DNA from: Ilumatobacter sp.
GTDB taxonomy: Bacteria > Actinomycetota > Acidimicrobiia > Acidimicrobiales > Ilumatobacteraceae
DNA: 64,000 nt
Assembly: GCF_046290335.1 (NCBI RefSeq)
Contig: NZ_JBKAGH010000009.1
Coordinates: 65,869 to 129,868 of the forward strand
Reading direction: 5' to 3'
Shown here: positions 36,871 to 46,602 of the stretch, one piece after another
How the letters are laid out: each line of letters begins with the position of its first letter
Numbering within the stretch: the first letter of the stretch is position 1
Notes under the pieces: model-generated
Told to the model about the DNA's origin: nothing
The model's database searches: none
The model's input: the letters and a program-made list of their open reading frames with translations, nothing else
Position numbers and translations under genes: made by a program

Positions 36871-38502
36871 TCAGGTCGCGACGAGTGGTCGCACCACGAC
36901 GCGGTTGCGGCCGAGGCGTTTCGCATCGAGCAGACGCGCATCGGCTTCGACGAGCAACTGGCGAACGTCCGACAACACGCCCACGGCGACGCCGCCGCTC
37001 ACCGTGAGCTCGAGGCCACTGGCGATGCTCTCCCAGTCGTGCGTGGCGATGGTGAGACGGACACGCTCGGCCGCCGACCACCCGAGCGACGCGACGTCGT
37101 CACCGACCTCAACGACGTCGAGGTCGCACATGACGACGACGAATTCTTCGCCGCCGACACGGGCGACCGCCGCCGCCGGCCCGACGCTCACGCGCAACAG
37201 CTCGGCGAACCGAGCGAGCACGTCGTCACCGACGTGATGCCCGAACGTGTCGTTGACGACCTTGAAGTGATCGATGTCGAACATCATCGCGACGCCGAGC
37301 CCCGGAGTCCGTTCGAGTTCGCTCAGTCGGCGGTCCAACCATCGGCGCGACTTCACGCCGGTCAGAGCATCTCGATCGATGTCGTCGGCGAGACGCTCGG
37401 CGATGTCCCGCAGCACCGAACTCGACCGTTCCAGCTCGGCTCGGCGGCGGATCTGGTCGCCGAGACGGCCGACCTGCTCGAGATGCCAGGCTCGCGACAA
37501 GCGCGCCAGCCGTAGCGCATCGGCGCTTGCACGATCGTGTTGACCGAGCGCGGCAAGCGCCCGCGACCGCTCCTCCAGTGCTCGCGCCAGGCAATGGTTG
37601 TCAGCACTCGCTTCGAGGCCCGGAATCGCCAGATCGAGCAGTTCGACCGTCGTCCCCGGAGCGTCCTGGCGCGCCGCGTGCATCGCCCGGACGAGCCGGT
37701 GCCAGGCGACGAGATCGGGTGCTGCGTCGCGATAGTGGCGTTCGGCAGCATCGAGCACCATTCGATCCATCGGCTCGTCGACCACCACCGCCGCTTCGCC
37801 TGCCAGCCCATCAGCCAGCATCGTGCGCGACACCTCGTCGACGCCGTCACGACGAAGCCACTCGATCGCGGCGGTGACGTCGTTCATGTAGCACGCTCGC
37901 CGAATCGGGTCCTTCGTGGCGTACGCCGCTTCTACGCTCATGTAGCCGAACGAATAGGCGACCGGATCGACGGGCACCCCTGCAAGATGTCGGGCCCCCT
38001 CGAACGCATGGCGGCCCGAGTCGACCGCGAGTTCGAACGCGCCGAGCCGCATGAAAAACCCCGACACCCCGAGCGCGGCTCGCACCGCGTCGACGTCGGC
38101 GATGGGTTCCGGGCCCTCCGAGAGGTCGGCGAGCATCACCAACGCATCGACGACGTGGTCGACCGCTGCCGCCGACTCGCCGATCTGGTCGAGGAACACC
38201 GCCGCCATCGACGACGCGAATGCCGCGACAGAGATCTCGCCTGCTGCGACCAGGTACGGCACGGCCTCGCGAGCCGAGGCAGCCTGGAGCGATGCGTCGC
38301 CGCGCCCCTGCAACGCCACGCAGCGGGCGACGAGTAACTTGCCGAGTTCCGCTGGATCGCTGACCGGAGAGGTGGCCGCGATGGCGGCGTCGATTCGAGT
38401 GACCACGTCGTCGTCGGGCGCGAGCGACATACGGCGTGCCGCCGCGGTCAGCTCCTCACTCGACTCGATCGTCATCTCGACCCGATCCTCATCTCGACTC
38501 AC
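36871..38502 (-). CDS. Diguanylate cyclase (GGEEF) with a helical/TPR-like N-terminus
   Basis: FDIDHFKVVNDTFGHHVGD, ARVGGEEF, TVSGGV, AKRLGRNR. Confidence 0.9.
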   Translation of the reverse strand: MSRDEDRVEMTIESSEELTAAARRMSLAPDDDVVTRIDAAIAATSPVSDPAELGKLLVARCVALQGRGDASLQAASAREAVPYLVAAGEISVAAFASSMAAVFLDQIGESAAAVDHVVDALVMLADLSEGPEPIADVDAVRAALGVSGFFMRLGAFELAVDSGRHAFEGARHLAGVPVDPVAYSFGYMSVEAAYATKDPIRRACYMNDVTAAIEWLRRDGVDEVSRTMLADGLAGEAAVVVDEPMDRMVLDAAERHYRDAAPDLVAWHRLVRAMHAARQDAPGTTVELLDLAIPGLEASADNHCLARALEERSRALAALGQHDRASADALRLARLSRAWHLEQVGRLGDQIRRRAELERSSSVLRDIAERLADDIDRDALTGVKSRRWLDRRLSELERTPGLGVAMMFDIDHFKVVNDTFGHHVGDDVLARFAELLRVSVGPAAAVARVGGEEFVVVMCDLDVVEVGDDVASLGWSAAERVRLTIATHDWESIASGLELTVSGGVAVGVLSDVRQLLVEADARLLDAKRLGRNRVVVRPLVAT

Positions 38503-38631
38503 ACCTCATGTATGAATGTCGGCCCGACGACACGTGGGCTTGACGGCCTCGTCCCGAGGCTGACGATTCCTTGATCGTCGCACCACCCTCCGCGGCCGGT
38601 TCGCGGACTGCGAGCGCCTAGCGTGCGACCC

Positions 38632-39489
38632 ATGGGATTCCGATTGGCCAACATCGACGGCCGAGCAGCACTACTCGACGACCGAGATCGGTACCACGAC
38701 CTCGAGTCACTCAGCGGCGGTGCGATCGGATCCGACCCGATGACCGCCCTGGCCGACGAAGCCGGGGTGCGCGCTGCCACCGAACGGCTCGCCGACGCCG
38801 AGCCGACCGGCGAGCTCGCCGACGTGGTACTCGGCGCACCCGTCCCGCGCCCGCGCAACGTGTTCGCCGTCGGGTTGAACTACTCCGACCACGCCGCCGA
38901 GTCGAACCTCACCCCTCCCGAGCAACCGTTGGTCTTCACGAAGTTCCCGTCGAGCATCTGCGGTCCGGCGACCGACATCGAACTGCGCAGCGAATTCGTC
39001 GACTACGAGGTCGAGGTGATCGTCGTGATCGGGCGGGGAGGCCACGACATCAGCGAGGCAGACGCGTGGTCGCACGTCATCGGCCTGACGATGGGCCAGG
39101 ACGTCTCCGATCGTCGCATGCAGTTCGCTTCGAGCCCGCCCCACTTCGACCTCGCGAAGTCGTTCGACACCTTCGGGCCGATGGGGCCATGGTTGCGGTC
39201 GCTCGACGGATTCGACGACCCCGACTCGCTCCGATTGACATGCTCCGTCAACGGCGACCTCCGCCAGGACGGCAACACCGGCGACCTCATCTTCGGCGTT
39301 CCGAAGCTGATCAGCTATCTCTCGCACATCACCACGCTGAGCGCCGGCGACATCATCTGGACCGGCACGCCGGCCGGTGTCGGCGCAGCGACAGGAGCGT
39401 TCCTGCGCGACGGCGACGTGGTCGAGACCTCGGTGACCGGGCTCGGCACCATGACCAACCGCTGTGTCCGAATCGGAGACCACGCGTGA
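38632..39489 (+). CDS. Fumarylacetoacetate hydrolase family protein
   Basis: AVGLNYSDHAAE, VFTKFPS, DYEVE, QDVSDR, AKSFDTF, TGTPAGVG. Confidence 0.9.
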   Translation: MGFRLANIDGRAALLDDRDRYHDLESLSGGAIGSDPMTALADEAGVRAATERLADAEPTGELADVVLGAPVPRPRNVFAVGLNYSDHAAESNLTPPEQPLVFTKFPSSICGPATDIELRSEFVDYEVEVIVVIGRGGHDISEADAWSHVIGLTMGQDVSDRRMQFASSPPHFDLAKSFDTFGPMGPWLRSLDGFDDPDSLRLTCSVNGDLRQDGNTGDLIFGVPKLISYLSHITTLSAGDIIWTGTPAGVGAATGAFLRDGDVVETSVTGLGTMTNRCVRIGDHA

Positions 39490-40586
39490 CCTCGTCGCAC
39501 CACGACTCGACCTCCACGACGCCGAGCCAGCCGACGAGCCCGCCGGTCGTGGTGTTCATGGTCGCGTTCCCCGCTCCTCCGGCGCTCGCCGAATCCCTCA
39601 CGGCGATCCATCCCGACGCCGAGTTGCTCTGGACGCCCTACACCGAATCCGAGGCGCTGCGATCCGCGCGGGGGCACCACGGCGGCCGGAACCCCGACGG
39701 ACTCGAGACGCCGGAGATCACCGACGAGATGCGCGCCCATTGGCAACGCGCCACGATCGCCGTCGCAATGGACCTGCCCGAAGGTCTCGACGAGTTGATG
39801 CCGAACCTCCAATGGGTGCAGAGCATCACGGCCGGCGTCGACAAGTACGACCTCGACGCATTCGATCGACAGGGTGTGCTGCTCACCAACGCCAGCGGTC
39901 TCGGTTCGGCCGGCATCGCCGAGTTCGTGATCGCCCGCCTGCTCCAGGAGTGGAAGAACCTCCGCACGTTCGACGCGCAGCAGCGCGAGCATCGCTGGGA
40001 GGGCATGTTCGGCACCGAGCTCACCGGACGCACCCTGGGGATCGCTGGTCTCGGCGCGATCGGCCGCGAGGTCGCTCGCCGTGCGCGAGCGTTCGACATG
40101 ACCGTGCTCGCGACGCGCGCCAGCGCGAAGCCCGGTGACACCGACGATGCCGTCGACGAACTGTTCCCGGCCGACGCTCTCGACGAGATGCTCGCTCGTT
40201 GCGACGCCGTCGTGTCGACGTTGCCGTCCAACCCGTCGACGATCGGGCTGTTCGACGCCGACCGGTTCGCCGCCATGCCAGCTGGCTCGCTGTTCTGCAA
40301 CGTCGGGCGAGGGGCCCACGTCGTCGAAGCCGACTTGATCGCCGCGCTCGAGTCCGGTCACCTTCGCGCTGCGGCCCTCGACGTCACCCACGTCGAACCG
40401 CTCCCCATGGACGATCCGCTGTGGGACGCTCCGAACATCTACATCTCGCCGCACTCGTCGGTCTCGCTCGACCGTTACGTCCAGAACCTCGAGGCGCTGT
40501 TCGTGGCGAACCTCGGCCACTTCTTCGCCGCCGAACCGCTCGTCAACGCCGTCGACACGGCCGACACGGCCGACACGAACTCATGA
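39486..40586 (+). CDS. D-2-hydroxyacid dehydrogenase
   Basis: GTGA overlap with the FAH gene. GLGAIG, NVGRG, LDVTHVEP, SPHSS (R/E/H catalytic set). Confidence 0.9.
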   Translation: MTSSHHDSTSTTPSQPTSPPVVVFMVAFPAPPALAESLTAIHPDAELLWTPYTESEALRSARGHHGGRNPDGLETPEITDEMRAHWQRATIAVAMDLPEGLDELMPNLQWVQSITAGVDKYDLDAFDRQGVLLTNASGLGSAGIAEFVIARLLQEWKNLRTFDAQQREHRWEGMFGTELTGRTLGIAGLGAIGREVARRARAFDMTVLATRASAKPGDTDDAVDELFPADALDEMLARCDAVVSTLPSNPSTIGLFDADRFAAMPAGSLFCNVGRGAHVVEADLIAALESGHLRAAALDVTHVEPLPMDDPLWDAPNIYISPHSSVSLDRYVQNLEALFVANLGHFFAAEPLVNAVDTADTADTNS

Positions 40587-40596
40587 ACGAACCGGC

Positions 40597-40995
40597 ATGA
40601 ATTTGTCCGACTGGCTCGACGACACCGATGCGCTGGCGGCACTCGACGCTGCGTATGCAGCGGCGTGGGCCTCGACCGACGCTGAGCTTCTCGCGCTGTG
40701 CCGAGACCGGATCGCGATGCTGCTGCGTCACGGGCCGACGGTCGAGGCGATGACCGACGACGATCGTCGCGAGCTCTCCCGCTGGGCCACCTCCGCCACG
40801 TTCACCGATCGCGAACGCGCCGCGCTCGACTTCACCGAGCAGTACGTGGTCGACGTCGCCGCGATGTCCGACGAGCAGGCCGGGCGGTTGCGTGAGCACC
40901 TCGGCGACGAAGAGCTCGTGAGTTTCGTCAACGCGATCCTCGTGCTCGAACAACGAATGACGCTCGAACTCGCCTTCGCCGGAGTGCTGCCGTGA
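40597..40995 (+). CDS. CMD/AhpD-like protein lacking the CxxC motif
   Basis: LCRDRIAMLL, FTDRERAALDFTEQY, LREHLGDEELV follow the CMD helical pattern; only one Cys. Confidence 0.75.
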   Translation: MNLSDWLDDTDALAALDAAYAAAWASTDAELLALCRDRIAMLLRHGPTVEAMTDDDRRELSRWATSATFTDRERAALDFTEQYVVDVAAMSDEQAGRLREHLGDEELVSFVNAILVLEQRMTLELAFAGVLP

Positions 40996-41519
40996 ACGCG
41001 TCGCCGCGCCCGGATGGAGCGTCTCGTTCGGCGCGCGTCGCCGCCGGAACACGAGCCGCACCCGCACTCGTCGGCGCGCTGATGGACTTCGCAGCCGCGG
41101 CCGTACGCAACGACCGTGTCGACCCCATCACCACCGAACTCGTTCGGCTGCGCTGCGCGACGGCGCACGACTGTCGTACTTGACTGTCGCTGCGCTCGGC
41201 AGTTGCCGAGCAACATGGTCTCGACGAAGACCTCGTCGCTCAACTCCACGCACCCGACCCGCAGCTCACCGATGCACACGTCGCAGCGATCGACTTCGCA
41301 ACTGCGATGATCGTCGACCCGGCCGGCATCACGGCGGAGCTCGGCGACCGGCTGCACCAACACTTCACCACGGGGCAGATCGTCGAACTCGCGCTCGACG
41401 TCATGAAGTGGAGCTACCAGAAGGTGACCGTCGCGCTCGGCACCGACCGCGAGATCGTTCCGGGCCAACTCACGCCACTGCGCTTCGACGACGACGGCAA
41501 CTGGATCCGCCCCACCTGA
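40992..41519 (+). CDS. CMD/AhpD-like probable selenoprotein (CxxU, Sec at residue 64 of 175); split into two ORFs in the track
   Basis: ORFs 40992..41183 and 41307..41519 are in the same frame with no other stop between them. Reads ELVRLRCATAHDCRT-[TGA]-LSLRS...AAIDFATAM...HFTTGQIVEL. A SECIS-like hairpin follows the TGA. Confidence 0.8.
41184..41220 (+). promoter_or_regulatory. Putative bacterial SECIS element
   Basis: 7-bp stem GCTCGGC (41194-41200) / GCCGAGC (41205-41211) with apical loop AGTT, 17 nt after the UGA; a weaker lower stem is possible. Confidence 0.7.
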
Positions 41520-41641
41520 CCCCCACCGATGAGCTTCATCCGCTCGCTACCGGATCATCCTCATCGCTTCGAGGTGCTCTGCCTCGGGGGTCACCAGAGC
41601 ATCGTCGTACGATCGCAGGAACACCTGGAAGAGGGATCGAC

Positions 41642-43867
41642 ATGACGAGCACCATCAACGAAGTCAGCATCGACGCACCGAGCGACAACGACGCGGCGAT
41701 CGAGGTGAAGCGATCGTTCTGCCGGATCTGCCACGCGGCCTGTCCGATCGACGTGCACCTCGACGGCAGCCAGGTCGTCAAGATCAGTGGCGTCGACGAC
41801 GATCCGCTGTTCAAGGGCTACACGTGCATCAAGGGTCGCCAGATTCCCGACCAGATCCACGATCCCGCCCGACTCCGCCATGCGCTCAAGCGCAGTCCGA
41901 ACGGCACGCTCGAGGAAGTCGCGAGCAGCGACGCTCTCGACGAGGTGGCCGCGAAGCTCCACGCGATCCTCGACGAACACGGCCCGCGTGCCATCGCCTC
42001 CTACACCGGCACCGGCGGCTACCAGAACGCACCGTCGCACCCCGTGGCGCAGGCGTTCCACCGGGCGGTCGGCTCCATCAGCTACTACACGTCGGTCACC
42101 ATCGACCAGCCGATGAAGGCCACTGCGCCGATGCGCATGGGCATGTGGGAAGCGGGCCCGCAGAACTTCAGCACCGCCGACGTCATGTTGGCGATCGGCT
42201 ACAACCCGATGGTGTCGAGCTTCGCTCCCTACGGCGGCCTCCAGGGCACCGACCCGTTCCAGACGCTGCGTCGCCGCAAAGCCGAGGGCCTCAAGGTGAT
42301 CGTCATCGACCCGCGCCGCACCGAACTCGCCAAACAGGCCGACATCCATCTCCAGGTGAAGCCCGGCGAAGACCCTGCGCTGCTCGCTGCGCTCCTCCAC
42401 GTGATCCTCACCGAGGACCTCCACGACGCGGCGTTCTGCGACCGCTGGGTCGAACCGGGCCATCTCGACGTGCTGCGGGCGACGGTCGAGCAGTTCACGC
42501 CCCACTACGCCGCCGAGCGGTGCGGCGTCGACGCCGACGACATCGTCGCGGCCGCCCGGCTGTTCGCCGCGGGCCCGACCGGGTCGAGCGGGTCCGGAAC
42601 CGGGCCGAGCATGTCGCCGCACGCCAGCTTGATGGAACACCTGTCGCTGTGTCTCAACGTCGTTTGCGGGCGCTACCTACGCGAAGGACAGCAGATGGAC
42701 TCGGGGGGTCTGTTGCCACCCGCCGCGCCGAAGCGAGCGCAGGTCATCGGCCCGTTCGGCAACCCGAAGGGCCCTCAGAGCCGATTTCGCGGGCTGCACG
42801 GCTACAACGGCGAAATGCCCTGCTCGACGCTGGCACAAGAGATCACCACGCCCGGCCCCGAACAGGTGCGAGCTCTGATCGTCAACGGTGGCAACCCCGT
42901 GGCTGCCTGGCCGGATCAGATCAAGTCCATCGCTGCGATGGAGTCACTCGAGTTGCTGGTCGTGATCGACCACCGCCTCACCCAGACCGCCGACTACGCC
43001 GACTACGTCTTCGCGCCGCGCTTGTCGCTCGAGCGTGCCGACGTTCCGCCGTTCATGGACCGCTGGTTCCGCGAGCCCTACGCCTGCTACACGCCCGCTG
43101 TCGTGACCGAGCCCGAGGGCGACCTGCTCAACGACTGGGAGGTCTACTGGGAGATCGCCGAACGACTCGGCGTCGACATCGAACTCCCGGGCGGGTCGAT
43201 TCCGCACCGTCACGCCGACGGGTCACGGCCGAGCGATGACGACGTCCTCGACCTCGTCTACGCGAAGTCTCGGGTGCCGTTGTCAGAGGTGCGCGCGAAG
43301 AACGGCACGGTCGTGCCCGAGTACGCGATCACCGTCTCGCCGGCAGATCCGGATGCATCGGGCCGGTTCCACGTCGCGCTCGACGACCACATGGAGGAGT
43401 TGCACGCCGTCCGTAGCGAGACGACCTCCGCCGAGGTGATGGCGGGGTTCGACCCGGCGGTCCACACCTTCCGACTGATCAGCCGGCGGTTGAAGTCGCA
43501 CCTCAACTCGCTCGGCCGCGAGCTGCCCGGGCTGGCTCGCAAGAACTCGACCAACTACGCGTACATGCATCCCGCCGACCTCGACGACCTCGGCATCGCC
43601 GACGACGACCTCGTACGGATCGCTTCCCCCCATGCCGAGTTGATCGGTGTCGTGAAGGGTGCTCCCGACGTGCGCCGCGGCGTCATCTCGATGGCGCACA
43701 GTTGGGGCTCGTCGAACGGCACCGACGAGAAGGTGCGCGACATCGGCGCACCGACCAATCGACTCATCGACGTCGACAACGGCTACTGCACGATCACCGG
43801 CCAAGCGGTCCAGAGCGCGATCCCCGTCAGCGTCGAACCCGTGAGCGAGGACGCACTCCTCCCCTGA
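41642..43867 (+). CDS. Cytoplasmic molybdopterin (DMSO reductase family) oxidoreductase with an N-terminal [4Fe-4S] site
   Basis: CRICHAAC...CIKG, GYNP, VIDPRRTELA, VNGGNP, TADYADYV, C-terminal RR...NS, MHPADL. No Tat signal. Confidence 0.9.
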   Translation: MTSTINEVSIDAPSDNDAAIEVKRSFCRICHAACPIDVHLDGSQVVKISGVDDDPLFKGYTCIKGRQIPDQIHDPARLRHALKRSPNGTLEEVASSDALDEVAAKLHAILDEHGPRAIASYTGTGGYQNAPSHPVAQAFHRAVGSISYYTSVTIDQPMKATAPMRMGMWEAGPQNFSTADVMLAIGYNPMVSSFAPYGGLQGTDPFQTLRRRKAEGLKVIVIDPRRTELAKQADIHLQVKPGEDPALLAALLHVILTEDLHDAAFCDRWVEPGHLDVLRATVEQFTPHYAAERCGVDADDIVAAARLFAAGPTGSSGSGTGPSMSPHASLMEHLSLCLNVVCGRYLREGQQMDSGGLLPPAAPKRAQVIGPFGNPKGPQSRFRGLHGYNGEMPCSTLAQEITTPGPEQVRALIVNGGNPVAAWPDQIKSIAAMESLELLVVIDHRLTQTADYADYVFAPRLSLERADVPPFMDRWFREPYACYTPAVVTEPEGDLLNDWEVYWEIAERLGVDIELPGGSIPHRHADGSRPSDDDVLDLVYAKSRVPLSEVRAKNGTVVPEYAITVSPADPDASGRFHVALDDHMEELHAVRSETTSAEVMAGFDPAVHTFRLISRRLKSHLNSLGRELPGLARKNSTNYAYMHPADLDDLGIADDDLVRIASPHAELIGVVKGAPDVRRGVISMAHSWGSSNGTDEKVRDIGAPTNRLIDVDNGYCTITGQAVQSAIPVSVEPVSEDALLP

Positions 43868-43873
43868 ACCACC

Positions 43874-43902
43874 CAGGTCATCGTGCCAGGCACCATGACC
43901 TG
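43874..43902. repeat. REP-like palindrome, family A, copy 1
   Basis: CAGGTCATCGTGCC-A-GGCACCATGACCTG (one mismatch). Confidence 0.85.
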
Positions 43903-43977
43903 CATCATGAGCTTCGGGTCGATGGGGCGTGGAATCCCGTCGCTCGCGTGGCCGCCGGGCGCAGTACGGTCGACCGT

Positions 43978-45156
43978 GTGAACGACCTCGACGACGTCGA
44001 TGCCGCCGTCGGTTGCGAGCTCGAGTTGCTGGACCCCGGGTGCCGCGCCGAACCCAATCGGGTGGCATCGCTGCTCGACGACGACTTCGTCGAGATCGGC
44101 AAGTCGGGGCGCGAGTACGGCCGCGACGACATCGTTGCGGCGCTCGCCGCCGAGCCGGGCCTCGACGGCGTCACCGTCGGTCCGATGAGCGGCCATCTGG
44201 TCACTGCCGGACTCGTCGTCGTGCGGTACACGACCCACCACGACGACGGTCCGGGTGCCGTCCACCGCACCGGATGGTGGCGGCAGACGACGGACGGATG
44301 GCGGTGCTGCTTTCATCAGGCGACCGTGGCAGCCGAGCTTGCCGGCGAGGCTGGCGCTGTGGCCAGAGGGGACCGGCCCGTCACCCAGACCGACGTCGAG
44401 GCGTCGCTGCGCACGGCCGGCGTGGCGACTGGATCGACGGTGATCGTGCACTGCTCACTGTCGGCGCTGGGATGGGTCGTCGGCAACGCGGTCGCAGTGG
44501 TTCGGGCACTGCGTTCGGTCGTGGGCGATGGTGGCACGATCGTCATGCCAGCGCAGACGGGCCTCAGCGACCCGTCACAGTGGCAGGCTCCGCCGGTGCC
44601 GAAGGATTGGTGGCCGACGATCCGAGCGCACTGGCCGGCGTTCGACCCGGTGATCACCCCGATGCGAGGGATGGGGGCCGTCGCCGACTGCTTCTCTCGA
44701 CTTCCCGGTGTGGTGCACAGTGGTCATCCGGCGCTCGGGTTCATCGCCCACGGACCACGCGCCCCCGAGTTGATGCACCCACACGACCTGGTCGACGGCC
44801 TCGGCGACCGATCGCCGCTGGCGAGACTCGAAGCGGCGGGGGCGGACATCGTGCTGATCGGCGTCGGCCATGGCAACAACACCGCACTCCATCTGGCCGA
44901 AGTCCGCGCCCTGGGCGCCGATGCACCGACGAGACGAGACGGTGTGCCGATGCTGGTGGACGGCCAGGACCGTTGGGTGGAGTTCTCCCACGTCGACGTC
45001 GACGAGCGTGACTTCGTGCTGCTCGGCGATGCCTACACCGCCGCTGGCGGGACCCAGACGCGGGCACCGCTCGGCGCGGCCGAGGTTCGTCGGCTGCCGA
45101 TGCCCGAGCTGATCGACTTCGCCACGAGATGGATCGCAGCGCACCGACCGCGCTGA
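43978..45156 (+). CDS. Fusion of an NTF2-like (DUF4440-type) domain and an AAC(3)/YokD-family N-acetyltransferase
   Basis: N-part ELELLDP...LLDDDFVEIGKSG...WRCCFHQAT; C-part VIVHCSLSALGWV, GTIVMP, GMGAVA, SGHP, NTALHLAE. One uninterrupted frame. Confidence 0.82.
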   Translation: MNDLDDVDAAVGCELELLDPGCRAEPNRVASLLDDDFVEIGKSGREYGRDDIVAALAAEPGLDGVTVGPMSGHLVTAGLVVVRYTTHHDDGPGAVHRTGWWRQTTDGWRCCFHQATVAAELAGEAGAVARGDRPVTQTDVEASLRTAGVATGSTVIVHCSLSALGWVVGNAVAVVRALRSVVGDGGTIVMPAQTGLSDPSQWQAPPVPKDWWPTIRAHWPAFDPVITPMRGMGAVADCFSRLPGVVHSGHPALGFIAHGPRAPELMHPHDLVDGLGDRSPLARLEAAGADIVLIGVGHGNNTALHLAEVRALGADAPTRRDGVPMLVDGQDRWVEFSHVDVDERDFVLLGDAYTAAGGTQTRAPLGAAEVRRLPMPELIDFATRWIAAHRPR

Positions 45157-45187
45157 AGGACGACGGCCCACACGATTCGGCGTAGCG

Positions 45188-46477
<1,290 letters not shown>

Positions 46478-46602
46478 CGAATCACCATATGCGTGCGACG
46501 AACCCAAGGCCACGCACGAGCCACGCACGAGCCGAACTCACGACCCCGCTGAACTCCTGCAGAGCCGACGGTCGGCTACGGATACTGTCGCTGCAGATTC
46601 CG

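Follow-up and report, generated by a model that had tools for sequence, protein, structure and literature searches.

A predicted selenoprotein pair of the AhpD fold beside a molybdoenzyme gene in Ilumatobacter sp.: probably three conserved modules set side by side

The window analyzed here is a stretch of 64,000 nucleotides from Ilumatobacter sp. (contig NZ_JBKAGH010000009.1, positions 65,869 to 129,868). Our subject is a run of five co-oriented genes, all on the + strand, at 38632–43867 of the window. They encode a fumarylacetoacetate-hydrolase family protein (FAH), a 2-hydroxyacid dehydrogenase (HADH), two small proteins of the AhpD/carboxymuconolactone decarboxylase fold (CMD1 and CMD2), and a MopB molybdoenzyme (hereafter the Mo enzyme). 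This interval was examined through a map of its open reading frames (ORFs), translations in which TGA was read as selenocysteine (Sec, U), and Pfam and NCBIfam scans of the five gene products, which together gave the following features.

38632–39489, + strand: FAH, fumarylacetoacetate-hydrolase family (Pfam PF01557 FAA_hydrolase, 211 bits)
39486–40586, + strand: HADH, D-isomer-specific 2-hydroxyacid dehydrogenase (Pfam PF02826/PF00389; 2-Hacid_dh_C 180 bits)
40597–40995, + strand: CMD1, Cys-less subunit of the AhpD/CMD fold, 132 aa (fold model and profile comparison)
40992–41519, + strand: CMD2, predicted selenoprotein of the AhpD/CMD fold, 175 aa (Pfam CMD 28.7 bits, cut-off 23)
41181–41183, + strand: predicted UGA selenocysteine codon of CMD2, in the motif H-D-C-R-T-U-L-S-L-R
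41194–41211, + strand: hairpin of the selenocysteine insertion sequence (SECIS) type, 18 nt, 11 nt past the UGA, with a 7-bp stem and an (A/G)GU(U/C) loop
41642–43867, + strand: predicted cytoplasmic enzyme with a molybdenum or tungsten bis-pyranopterin guanine dinucleotide cofactor (Mo/W-bisPGD; MopB), 741 aa (Pfam PF04879, PF00384, PF01568)

The HADH start codon, GTG, overlaps the stop of FAH (GTGA), CMD1 begins 10 bp past the HADH stop, the GTG start of CMD2 overlaps the CMD1 stop (again GTGA), and the Mo gene starts 122 bp after CMD2. The ORF map confirms what an initial annotation of this DNA had described: five co-oriented genes, the first four overlapping or 10 bp apart, with a CMD1 that lacks CxxC and is coupled to CMD2 through GTGA. 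That annotation had also read the five genes as a single pathway. A scan of 38300–44300 for promoter- and terminator-like sites found none and was uninformative. An Rfam scan of 38000–45500 gave no element that breaks up the row of genes: the 122-bp spacer between CMD2 and the Mo gene matches neither a molybdenum cofactor (Moco) riboswitch nor any other RNA family.

The identity of CMD2 depends on how its in-frame TGA is read. Across 80 related CMD2 loci from species-representative genomes, almost all Acidimicrobiia and at 45–73% protein identity, TGA stands at the identical codon in every case, and both halves of the gene are conserved in frame. In full-length homologues, the Cys of HDCRxC aligns with the TGA of CMD2. 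Folding the single sequence past the UGA gave only z = −1.6, so support for a SECIS element had to come from covariation. In the hairpin alignment, 88% of cells are paired, compensatory and mostly synonymous changes occur at four of the seven pairs, and covariation as high as that observed arose in none of 500 shuffles. Within the apical loop, G22 and U23 are invariant. The genome itself encodes the necessary machinery, with selB (279 bits) and selA (407 bits) side by side, a tRNA-SeC(tca) at C3:162704-162797, and a selD (370 bits; C5:103034-103954) that itself has an in-frame TGA. Because the universal TGA, the Cys homologues, the SECIS covariation and the complete selA/selB/selC/selD set all agree, comparative sequence evidence indicates that the TGA encodes selenocysteine and that CMD2 is a CxxU selenoprotein, as the initial annotation had proposed.

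The closest database entries to CMD2 are 109-aa fragments, labeled "hypothetical protein" in Ilumatobacter metagenome-assembled genomes (MAGs). They begin just past the TGA, and therefore the gene callers stopped there. This habit of public annotation is the one point in favor of a true stop or pseudogene lesion that would make CMD2 two unrelated short ORFs, a reading that is scarcely credible given a codon held identical, with both halves in frame, at such divergence, its replacement by Cys in homologues, the covarying hairpin and the complete Sec machinery. Our analysis thus corrects an annotation error by which genes of the CMD2 type are systematically called as a 109-aa hypothetical protein. 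We also note that several MAG contigs labeled Bifidobacterium (L032, L035, L038, L044 and L061) encode a selenoprotein pair of the Acidimicrobiia type and group in the tree with Ilumatobacteraceae; these labels are probably binning or taxonomy errors.

The Cys-less CMD1 is a constant companion of CMD2. We searched the 80 CMD2 loci, with 8-kb flanks, by tblastn with the five window proteins. In all 79 assessable loci, the gene immediately before CMD2 encodes a CMD1 homologue; the contig of the 80th ends 136 bp upstream of CMD2. The CMD1 stop and the CMD2 start overlap by 4 nt in 57 of these 79 loci and lie within 20 nt of each other in 75. A Cys-form operon on a proteobacterial-type contig (L095) keeps a 125-aa partner, also with a 4-bp overlap. 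Wider synteny was sought by all-against-all ORF clustering and by a scan with every window ORF, and only CMD1 and CMD2 proved common to the window and the 80 loci. The neighbors of the pair are otherwise heterogeneous, including P450, SDR, enoyl-CoA hydratase, EthD/DUF4286 and DUF2889 genes; 27 of the 80 loci have P450 genes no farther than 8 kb from the pair. CMD1–CMD2 is a real conserved unit in which the Cys-less CMD1 is the obligate partner of CMD2.

The two proteins are distant paralogues (BLASTP E = 3e-6; hhalign of their profiles 96.7%), and CMD1 has lost the cysteines from the segment that matches the HDCxTU centre of CMD2. Conserved residues of CMD1 include W63, E81, D86 and E118-Q119-R120. 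CMD1 has no Pfam match. AlphaFold2 models are all-helical and AhpD-like for both proteins, with predicted local distance difference test (pLDDT) values of 96 for CMD1 and 91 for CMD2. Foldseek returned a probability of 1.0 to PA0269/7xw1, Atu0492, mlr4105 and D. radiodurans AhpD, and the template modelling (TM) scores to P. aeruginosa AhpD/PA0269 (7xw1), taken by query, were 0.78–0.80 for CMD1 and 0.62–0.65 for CMD2. The active site of CMD2 reads E49...C61-R-T-U64...R68, with Arg68 invariant. A role as gamma-carboxymuconolactone decarboxylase (PcaC) was weighed and set aside, since a conserved CxxC/CxxU centre and matches to AhpD-like folds point to redox chemistry instead.

The two halves also occur as one chain. 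A profile search of 1.8 billion representatives recovered 137 proteins at E <= 1e-30, and we inspected the best 150 representatives for fusions. In 75 of these best 150, a protein of 260–360 aa joins a CMD1-like N-domain to a CMD2-like C-domain with CxxC. Comparison of the CMD1 profile with the N-terminal domain of one such fusion (P0180) gave an hhalign value of 98.6%. Their sources name the fused proteins only "alkylhydroperoxidase family enzyme." Fused CMD1–CMD2 genes are rare in Actinomycetota (one other genus in 301 genomes), where no Mo gene lies within 1.5 kb of them. Because the pairing is obligate, the genes are translationally coupled, the proteins are paralogous, and fusion in the same order is frequent, these data support a heteromer of CMD1 and CMD2, which would in effect be a split two-domain AhpD-like selenoprotein. 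The scaffold and selenol subunits proposed in the initial annotation find their counterparts in this arrangement. Thus, the constant Cys-less paralogue of this subfamily and the fusions in half of the relatives inspected lead to a concrete quaternary model, that of a split two-domain enzyme.

The Mo enzyme matches PF04879 (Molybdop_Fe4S4, 44 bits), PF00384 (Molybdopterin, 100 bits) and PF01568 (Molydop_binding, 60 bits), and its N terminus carries a 4Fe-4S motif of the form C-x2-C-x3-C...C. It belongs to a large family, with >3000 homologues at E <= 1e-20, many of them at 60–88% identity. Its best sequence matches in the PDB are formate dehydrogenases, PsrA/PhsA and acetylene hydratase (E 1e-36 to 1e-26), and among NCBIfam equivalogs it falls far below every cut-off (TIGR01591, 200 bits against 666). 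Two motifs, YTSxTIDQPxK and FCRxCHAxCP, are invariant in the window enzyme and 116 homologues. We rejected a formate dehydrogenase (FDH) assignment, since FdhH and F420-dependent FDH have their Sec-His where this family shows either a gap or the Pro-Met of the invariant TIDQPMK. The Cys ligand of PsrA and of acetylene hydratase is likewise not conserved in the family. The invariant His after the second [4Fe-4S] Cys (FCRxCHAxCP) presumably occupies the position of the catalytic Asp13 of acetylene hydratase. Asp155 is a candidate metal ligand. In-frame TGAs had been reported in some Mo orthologues; none falls within the aligned regions, and the idea was dropped.

The initial annotation had called the Mo enzyme cytoplasmic and without a small-subunit gene. 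Indeed, the protein has no twin-arginine signal, no small-subunit gene lies nearby, and an electron-transfer subunit gene was never found beside Mo orthologues in the neighborhoods inspected. Judged from its domains and motifs, it is best described as a single-subunit cytoplasmic Mo-bisPGD enzyme of an uncharacterised subfamily, distinct from formate dehydrogenase. The genes beside its orthologues include SDR, Glyoxalase_4, SnoaL_4, Rieske oxygenase, P450 and FMO-like genes, and SnoaL-like genes recur there (L090 and L092). Downstream of the Mo gene in the window, an ORF at 43702–45156 (+) combines a DUF4440/SnoaL-like domain with an aminoglycoside 3-N-acetyltransferase (AAC(3)) domain. It is followed at 45188–46528 (−) by a beta-lactamase-fold gene with 76% identity to a gene of the metagenome contig L121. 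Because that L121 gene directly follows Mo, the DUF4440–AAC(3) stretch looks like an insertion.

AhpD-like genes adjoin genes of this Mo family in several places. First, the closest Mo orthologues, at 86–88% identity on metagenome contigs L119, L121 and L122, have CMD1–CMD2(TGA) upstream on the same strand. The junction between CMD2 and Mo is a spacer of ~150 bp in L121 and a 4-bp overlap in L122, and in L119 an FMO-like gene is inserted. Second, among the genes retrieved with the window's Mo protein, eight loci of a Mo clade at 55–62% identity, including both same-genus genomes, have a different AhpD-like CxxU/CxxC gene 3–1300 bp downstream of Mo. Its product is a selenoprotein of ~168 aa with the motif QLNECHV-U-LNTR and a C-terminal CGFC; the Sec form occurs in L128, L129, L132, L133, L134, L137 and L138 and a Cys form (CEVC) in L131. 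Third, at 50% identity, genome G061 has the order CMD1'–CMD2'(CGYC)–TetR–Mo with overlapping stops and starts, and in G071 a similar pair precedes Mo. The genome studied here also has a homologue (51%), with TGA, of the AhpD-like selenoprotein of the 55–62% clade, at C5:274941-275405, away from Mo.

These adjacencies are tight: in the Mo loci, no CMD match is farther than ~1.3 kb from Mo. Because PF02627 genes are rare (seven matches in the 5.5 Mb of the window's own genome), a chance adjacency is expected at <1%. The CMD pair and the Mo family also co-occur over 81 family genomes with an odds ratio of 8.2 (p = 1e-4), and with one genome per genus the odds ratio is 5.9 (p = 0.008), both statistics ignoring kinship. 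The co-occurrence persists within genome-size classes. The genomic association of CMD proteins with the Mo enzyme is recurrent yet facultative, found in three arrangements with three CMD subfamilies. As such, this linkage of three AhpD-like subfamilies to one uncharacterised Mo family provides a first functional lead for both orphan families.

Several observations weigh against a functional link. No Mo gene lies within 8 kb of the CMD pair in any of the 80 loci from other species. Mo orthologues at 75–83% identity (L089–L094) have no CMD gene nearby, ~30 metagenome Mo loci at 67–84% identity have none within 5 kb, and the 1.9 kb upstream of a Mo fragment at 87% (L195) likewise contain none. 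Neither G028 nor G078, both of the same genus, has the CMD1–CMD2 pair at all. The CMD2 tree places the four copies adjacent to Mo in a single supported clade of 13 rows, interspersed with nine non-adjacent ones. A single ancestral juxtaposition followed by losses, amounting to plain synteny inertia, may explain the 86–88% clade, and since both gene types occur in catabolic clusters (P450, SDR, FMO, Rieske), their association could be indirect. The partnership drawn in the initial annotation is thus partly supported: the three arrangements and an odds ratio of ~6–8 speak for it, and the 80 CMD-pair loci without Mo and the ~30 Mo orthologues (67–83% identity) without CMD speak against it. On balance, a specific functional tie of the pair to the Mo enzyme seems to us to fall just short of an even call.

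A strong competing explanation is that CMD1–CMD2 works alone, as a redox or antioxidant module (a hydroperoxide or disulfide reductase, for example, supplied by thioredoxin or lipoamide systems), and that its adjacency to Mo reflects shared catabolic islands and inherited synteny. The missing Mo genes around the 80 pairs, the heterogeneity of the pair's neighbors, the Mo orthologues without CMD, the absence of the pair from G028 and G078 and the confinement of Mo-adjacent CMD2 copies to one clade are all as this explanation would have them. It accounts less well for three CMD subfamilies adjoining three Mo clades within ~1.3 kb, some with stop/start overlaps, when CMD genes number only seven per 5.5 Mb, or for a co-occurrence that holds by genome-size class and with one genome per genus. 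We take it seriously, although we would not favor it outright.

The CMD proteins might instead act as maturation or sulfur/selenium-transfer factors for the Mo cofactor, by analogy with FdhD, the CxxC sulfurtransferase on which the activity of formate dehydrogenase depends. Small CxxC/CxxU proteins that are recurrently and tightly linked to a MopB enzyme would fit such a role, and a facultative link is common among accessory and maturation factors. However, the fold is AhpD-like rather than FdhD-like, the pair is common at loci without this Mo family and occurs in some genomes that lack it, and persulfide-relay genes were not seen among the annotated neighbors. We regard this possibility as unlikely.

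FAH and HADH have a conservation pattern of their own. The initial annotation had placed them in the same pathway as the other three genes, processing a keto- or hydroxy-acid product. Where HADH orthologues occur at 74–79% identity (L113, L115 and L118), an FAH orthologue at 67–69% identity precedes with the same 4-bp overlap, the next gene is a convergent methyltransferase, and the gene upstream of FAH reads through TGA as a GrdB/PrdB-like selenoprotein (VILTPV-U-PLC). No CMD gene follows any HADH orthologue at 71–79% identity, and neither CMD nor Mo genes are found near the FAH–HADH orthologue loci (67–79% identity). Conversely, FAH and HADH orthologues are absent within 8 kb of all 80 CMD pairs (a single FAH paralogue, 4 kb off, is encoded on the opposite strand), and none was found near Mo in ~85 Mo loci outside the window's own genome. 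FAH–HADH is a separate, independently conserved and translationally coupled pair, outside the CMD/Mo unit, and it adjoins CMD1 in this genome alone.

How this pair came to abut CMD1 can be read from relatives. In the closest clade (L009, L010, L011, L013, L014, L119, L121 and L122), P450(+)/SDR(−) genes precede the CMD pair. Because relatives have P450/SDR upstream of CMD1, and because FAH–HADH orthologues sit behind the GrdB-like selenoprotein, gene order indicates that FAH–HADH reached CMD1 by rearrangement in this lineage, the predicted breakpoint lying within 10 bp of the CMD1 start. FAH–HADH are probably co-transcribed with CMD1–CMD2 in this genome, since the genes are tightly packed and 38300–44300 contains no terminator-like site. 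These same two features are what a single five-gene pathway, in which FAH and HADH would act on a product of the Mo/CMD system, has in its favor. Set against the GrdB-like context of the FAH–HADH orthologues, their absence from the CMD-pair and Mo loci, and the P450/SDR genes upstream of the pair in its closest Mo/CMD relatives, they leave such a pathway highly improbable. Thus, tight operon packing in one genome, as in FAH–HADH–CMD1–CMD2, can result from recent rearrangement rather than from a shared pathway.

The co-occurrence check that the initial annotation had suggested for its five genes therefore yields independent assortment across genomes. Because the gene sets assort independently, we favor three modules over one pathway: the region is probably a juxtaposition of FAH–HADH, CMD1–CMD2 and the Mo enzyme, each conserved on its own.

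Other selenoprotein genes came to light along the way. The GrdB-like gene beside FAH in L113 (L113:2904-4067; also in L115 and L118) is split by gene callers into ORFs of 151 aa and 229 aa, and the GrdB-like gene of the genome studied here, at C9:647-1804, lies outside the window on the same contig, ~103 kb from FAH–HADH. A further PF02627 match with an in-frame TGA occurs at C7:51378-51626, also outside the window. With CMD2, the C5 AhpD-like gene and the GrdB-like gene among its TGA-containing genes, this genome probably encodes at least five selenoproteins. ARAGORN also made a putative tRNA-Pyl call with a CUA anticodon at C13:20876-20951 (complement), which could be suppressor-like or mis-called.

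Within the three-module reading, CMD1–CMD2 would be a split, two-subunit AhpD-like thiol/selenol oxidoreductase, and the Cys-less CMD1 the counterpart of the N-terminal non-catalytic domain of the fused two-domain proteins. Sec64 would be inserted at the UGA by the genome's SelA/B/C/D system through the SECIS hairpin 11 nt downstream. In the proposed cycle, Sec64, at the inferred position of Cys133 in M. tuberculosis AhpD, would attack, Cys61 would resolve the selenenylsulfide, and an upstream reductant would recycle it. More speculatively, and as the likeliest of the possible relations although at slightly less than even odds, the heteromer might exchange reducing equivalents with the Mo enzyme through the N-terminal [4Fe-4S] cluster, or might keep the Mo enzyme reduced or repaired. 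The Mo enzyme would not strictly need the heteromer. Its gene is co-inherited with the CMD pair in this sub-lineage, and other AhpD-like Cys/Sec proteins flank Mo in other clades. There are precedents for coupling clusters to disulfides in ferredoxin:thioredoxin reductase (FTR) and heterodisulfide reductase (Hdr), and E. coli BisC reportedly needs a thioredoxin-like protein.

A bolder version of this scheme is that the FCRxCHAxCP/TIDQP Mo subfamily has dedicated redox partners or reductive activators in AhpD-like Cys/Sec proteins, which would dock at its lone [4Fe-4S] cluster in the manner of FTR or Hdr. Different clades would have recruited different ones, here a heterodimeric Sec "split AhpD." We offer this idea tentatively and think it rather doubtful. 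If true, it would define a new partner class for molybdoenzymes and a first physiological role for CMD-type selenoproteins.

It is useful to compare these genes with known systems. The window Mo enzyme shares its three-domain architecture and similar length with single-subunit cytoplasmic Mo/W-bisPGD enzymes that carry one [4Fe-4S] cluster, represented by FdhH (1aa6), acetylene hydratase (2e7z) and PsrA/PhsA (2vpw). However, their Sec/Cys ligands are not conserved in it; instead, it has YTSxTIDQPxK and the His after the second cluster Cys.

AhpD/CMD-fold CxxU selenoproteins are among the commonest selenoproteins in aquatic metagenomes, and we know of none with a known partner or substrate. Members of the CMD/AhpD superfamily with CxxU have been catalogued since the Sargasso Sea selenoproteome, as "CMD domain-containing protein," "AhpD-like protein" and "hypothetical protein 1" (PMC1088965), and two reviews include them (PMC9312934, PMC13188914). 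CMD2 resembles the Sargasso-type proteins in its fold superfamily, in having Sec at the second position of CxxC and in the SECIS directly downstream, and they too come from marine or freshwater bacteria and are presumed to have a thiol-type redox function. It differs from the catalogued proteins in its motif, HDCxTU-xSxR, in which Arg replaces the His of AhpD, in its obligate Cys-less paralogue upstream, and in the natural two-domain fusions. The obligate Cys-less partner, the fusions and the Mo neighborhood are not mentioned in PMC1088965, PMC9312934 or PMC13188914. CMD2 also falls below the cut-offs of the NCBIfam Sec-CMD models (NF053654, 35.8 against 310 bits; NF041047, 23.2 against 110) and of TIGR00778 (18.2 against 27.8 bits), and it has no match to TIGR01926 or NF041238.

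CMD1 and CMD2 share the all-helical AhpD-like fold of M. tuberculosis AhpD (1knc, 1gu9) and P. aeruginosa AhpD/PA0269 (7xw1, 2ijc, 2o4d). M. tuberculosis AhpD was a weak match to CMD2 in the structure search (E ~1), and we take E49, C61 and U64 of CMD2 to reproduce the Glu118/Cys130/Cys133 spacing of that enzyme, Glu-(x11)-Cys-x-x-Cys. Whereas the AhpD proteins are homomeric Cys enzymes, this is a two-gene system with Sec. His137, part of the proton relay of M. tuberculosis AhpD, has Arg68 as its counterpart in CMD2, and the relay would probably differ. As for coupling to a peroxiredoxin (AhpC), no such family appears among the annotated recurrent neighbor clusters of the 80 loci or at 36–47 kb of the window; an AhpC-TSA gene was seen only in the distant Cys-form locus L095, 5 kb away.

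Pairing itself has a parallel in Avi_7169/Avi_7170 (NCBIfam TIGR04030/TIGR04029), a conserved pair of adjacent CMD-family genes, one of them with CxxC. CMD1–CMD2 is like it in being paired, but Sec is not described for the Avi pair. No window protein matches TIGR04030 or TIGR04029, and TIGR04030 is reached only by the distant CMD2' of G061, whose 26 bits compare with a cut-off of 233. Finally, the tetrabromopyrrole debrominase Bmp8 (6ohi/6ohj) has a CMD fold, matched here at TM ~0.56, and uses its active-site cysteines for reductive chemistry on a small molecule. It is a single-chain Cys enzyme at 14–18% identity to the CMD proteins, and the window locus has no halogenase or pyrrole genes. As Bmp8 shows, a CMD fold can have catabolic substrates as well as peroxides for its targets.

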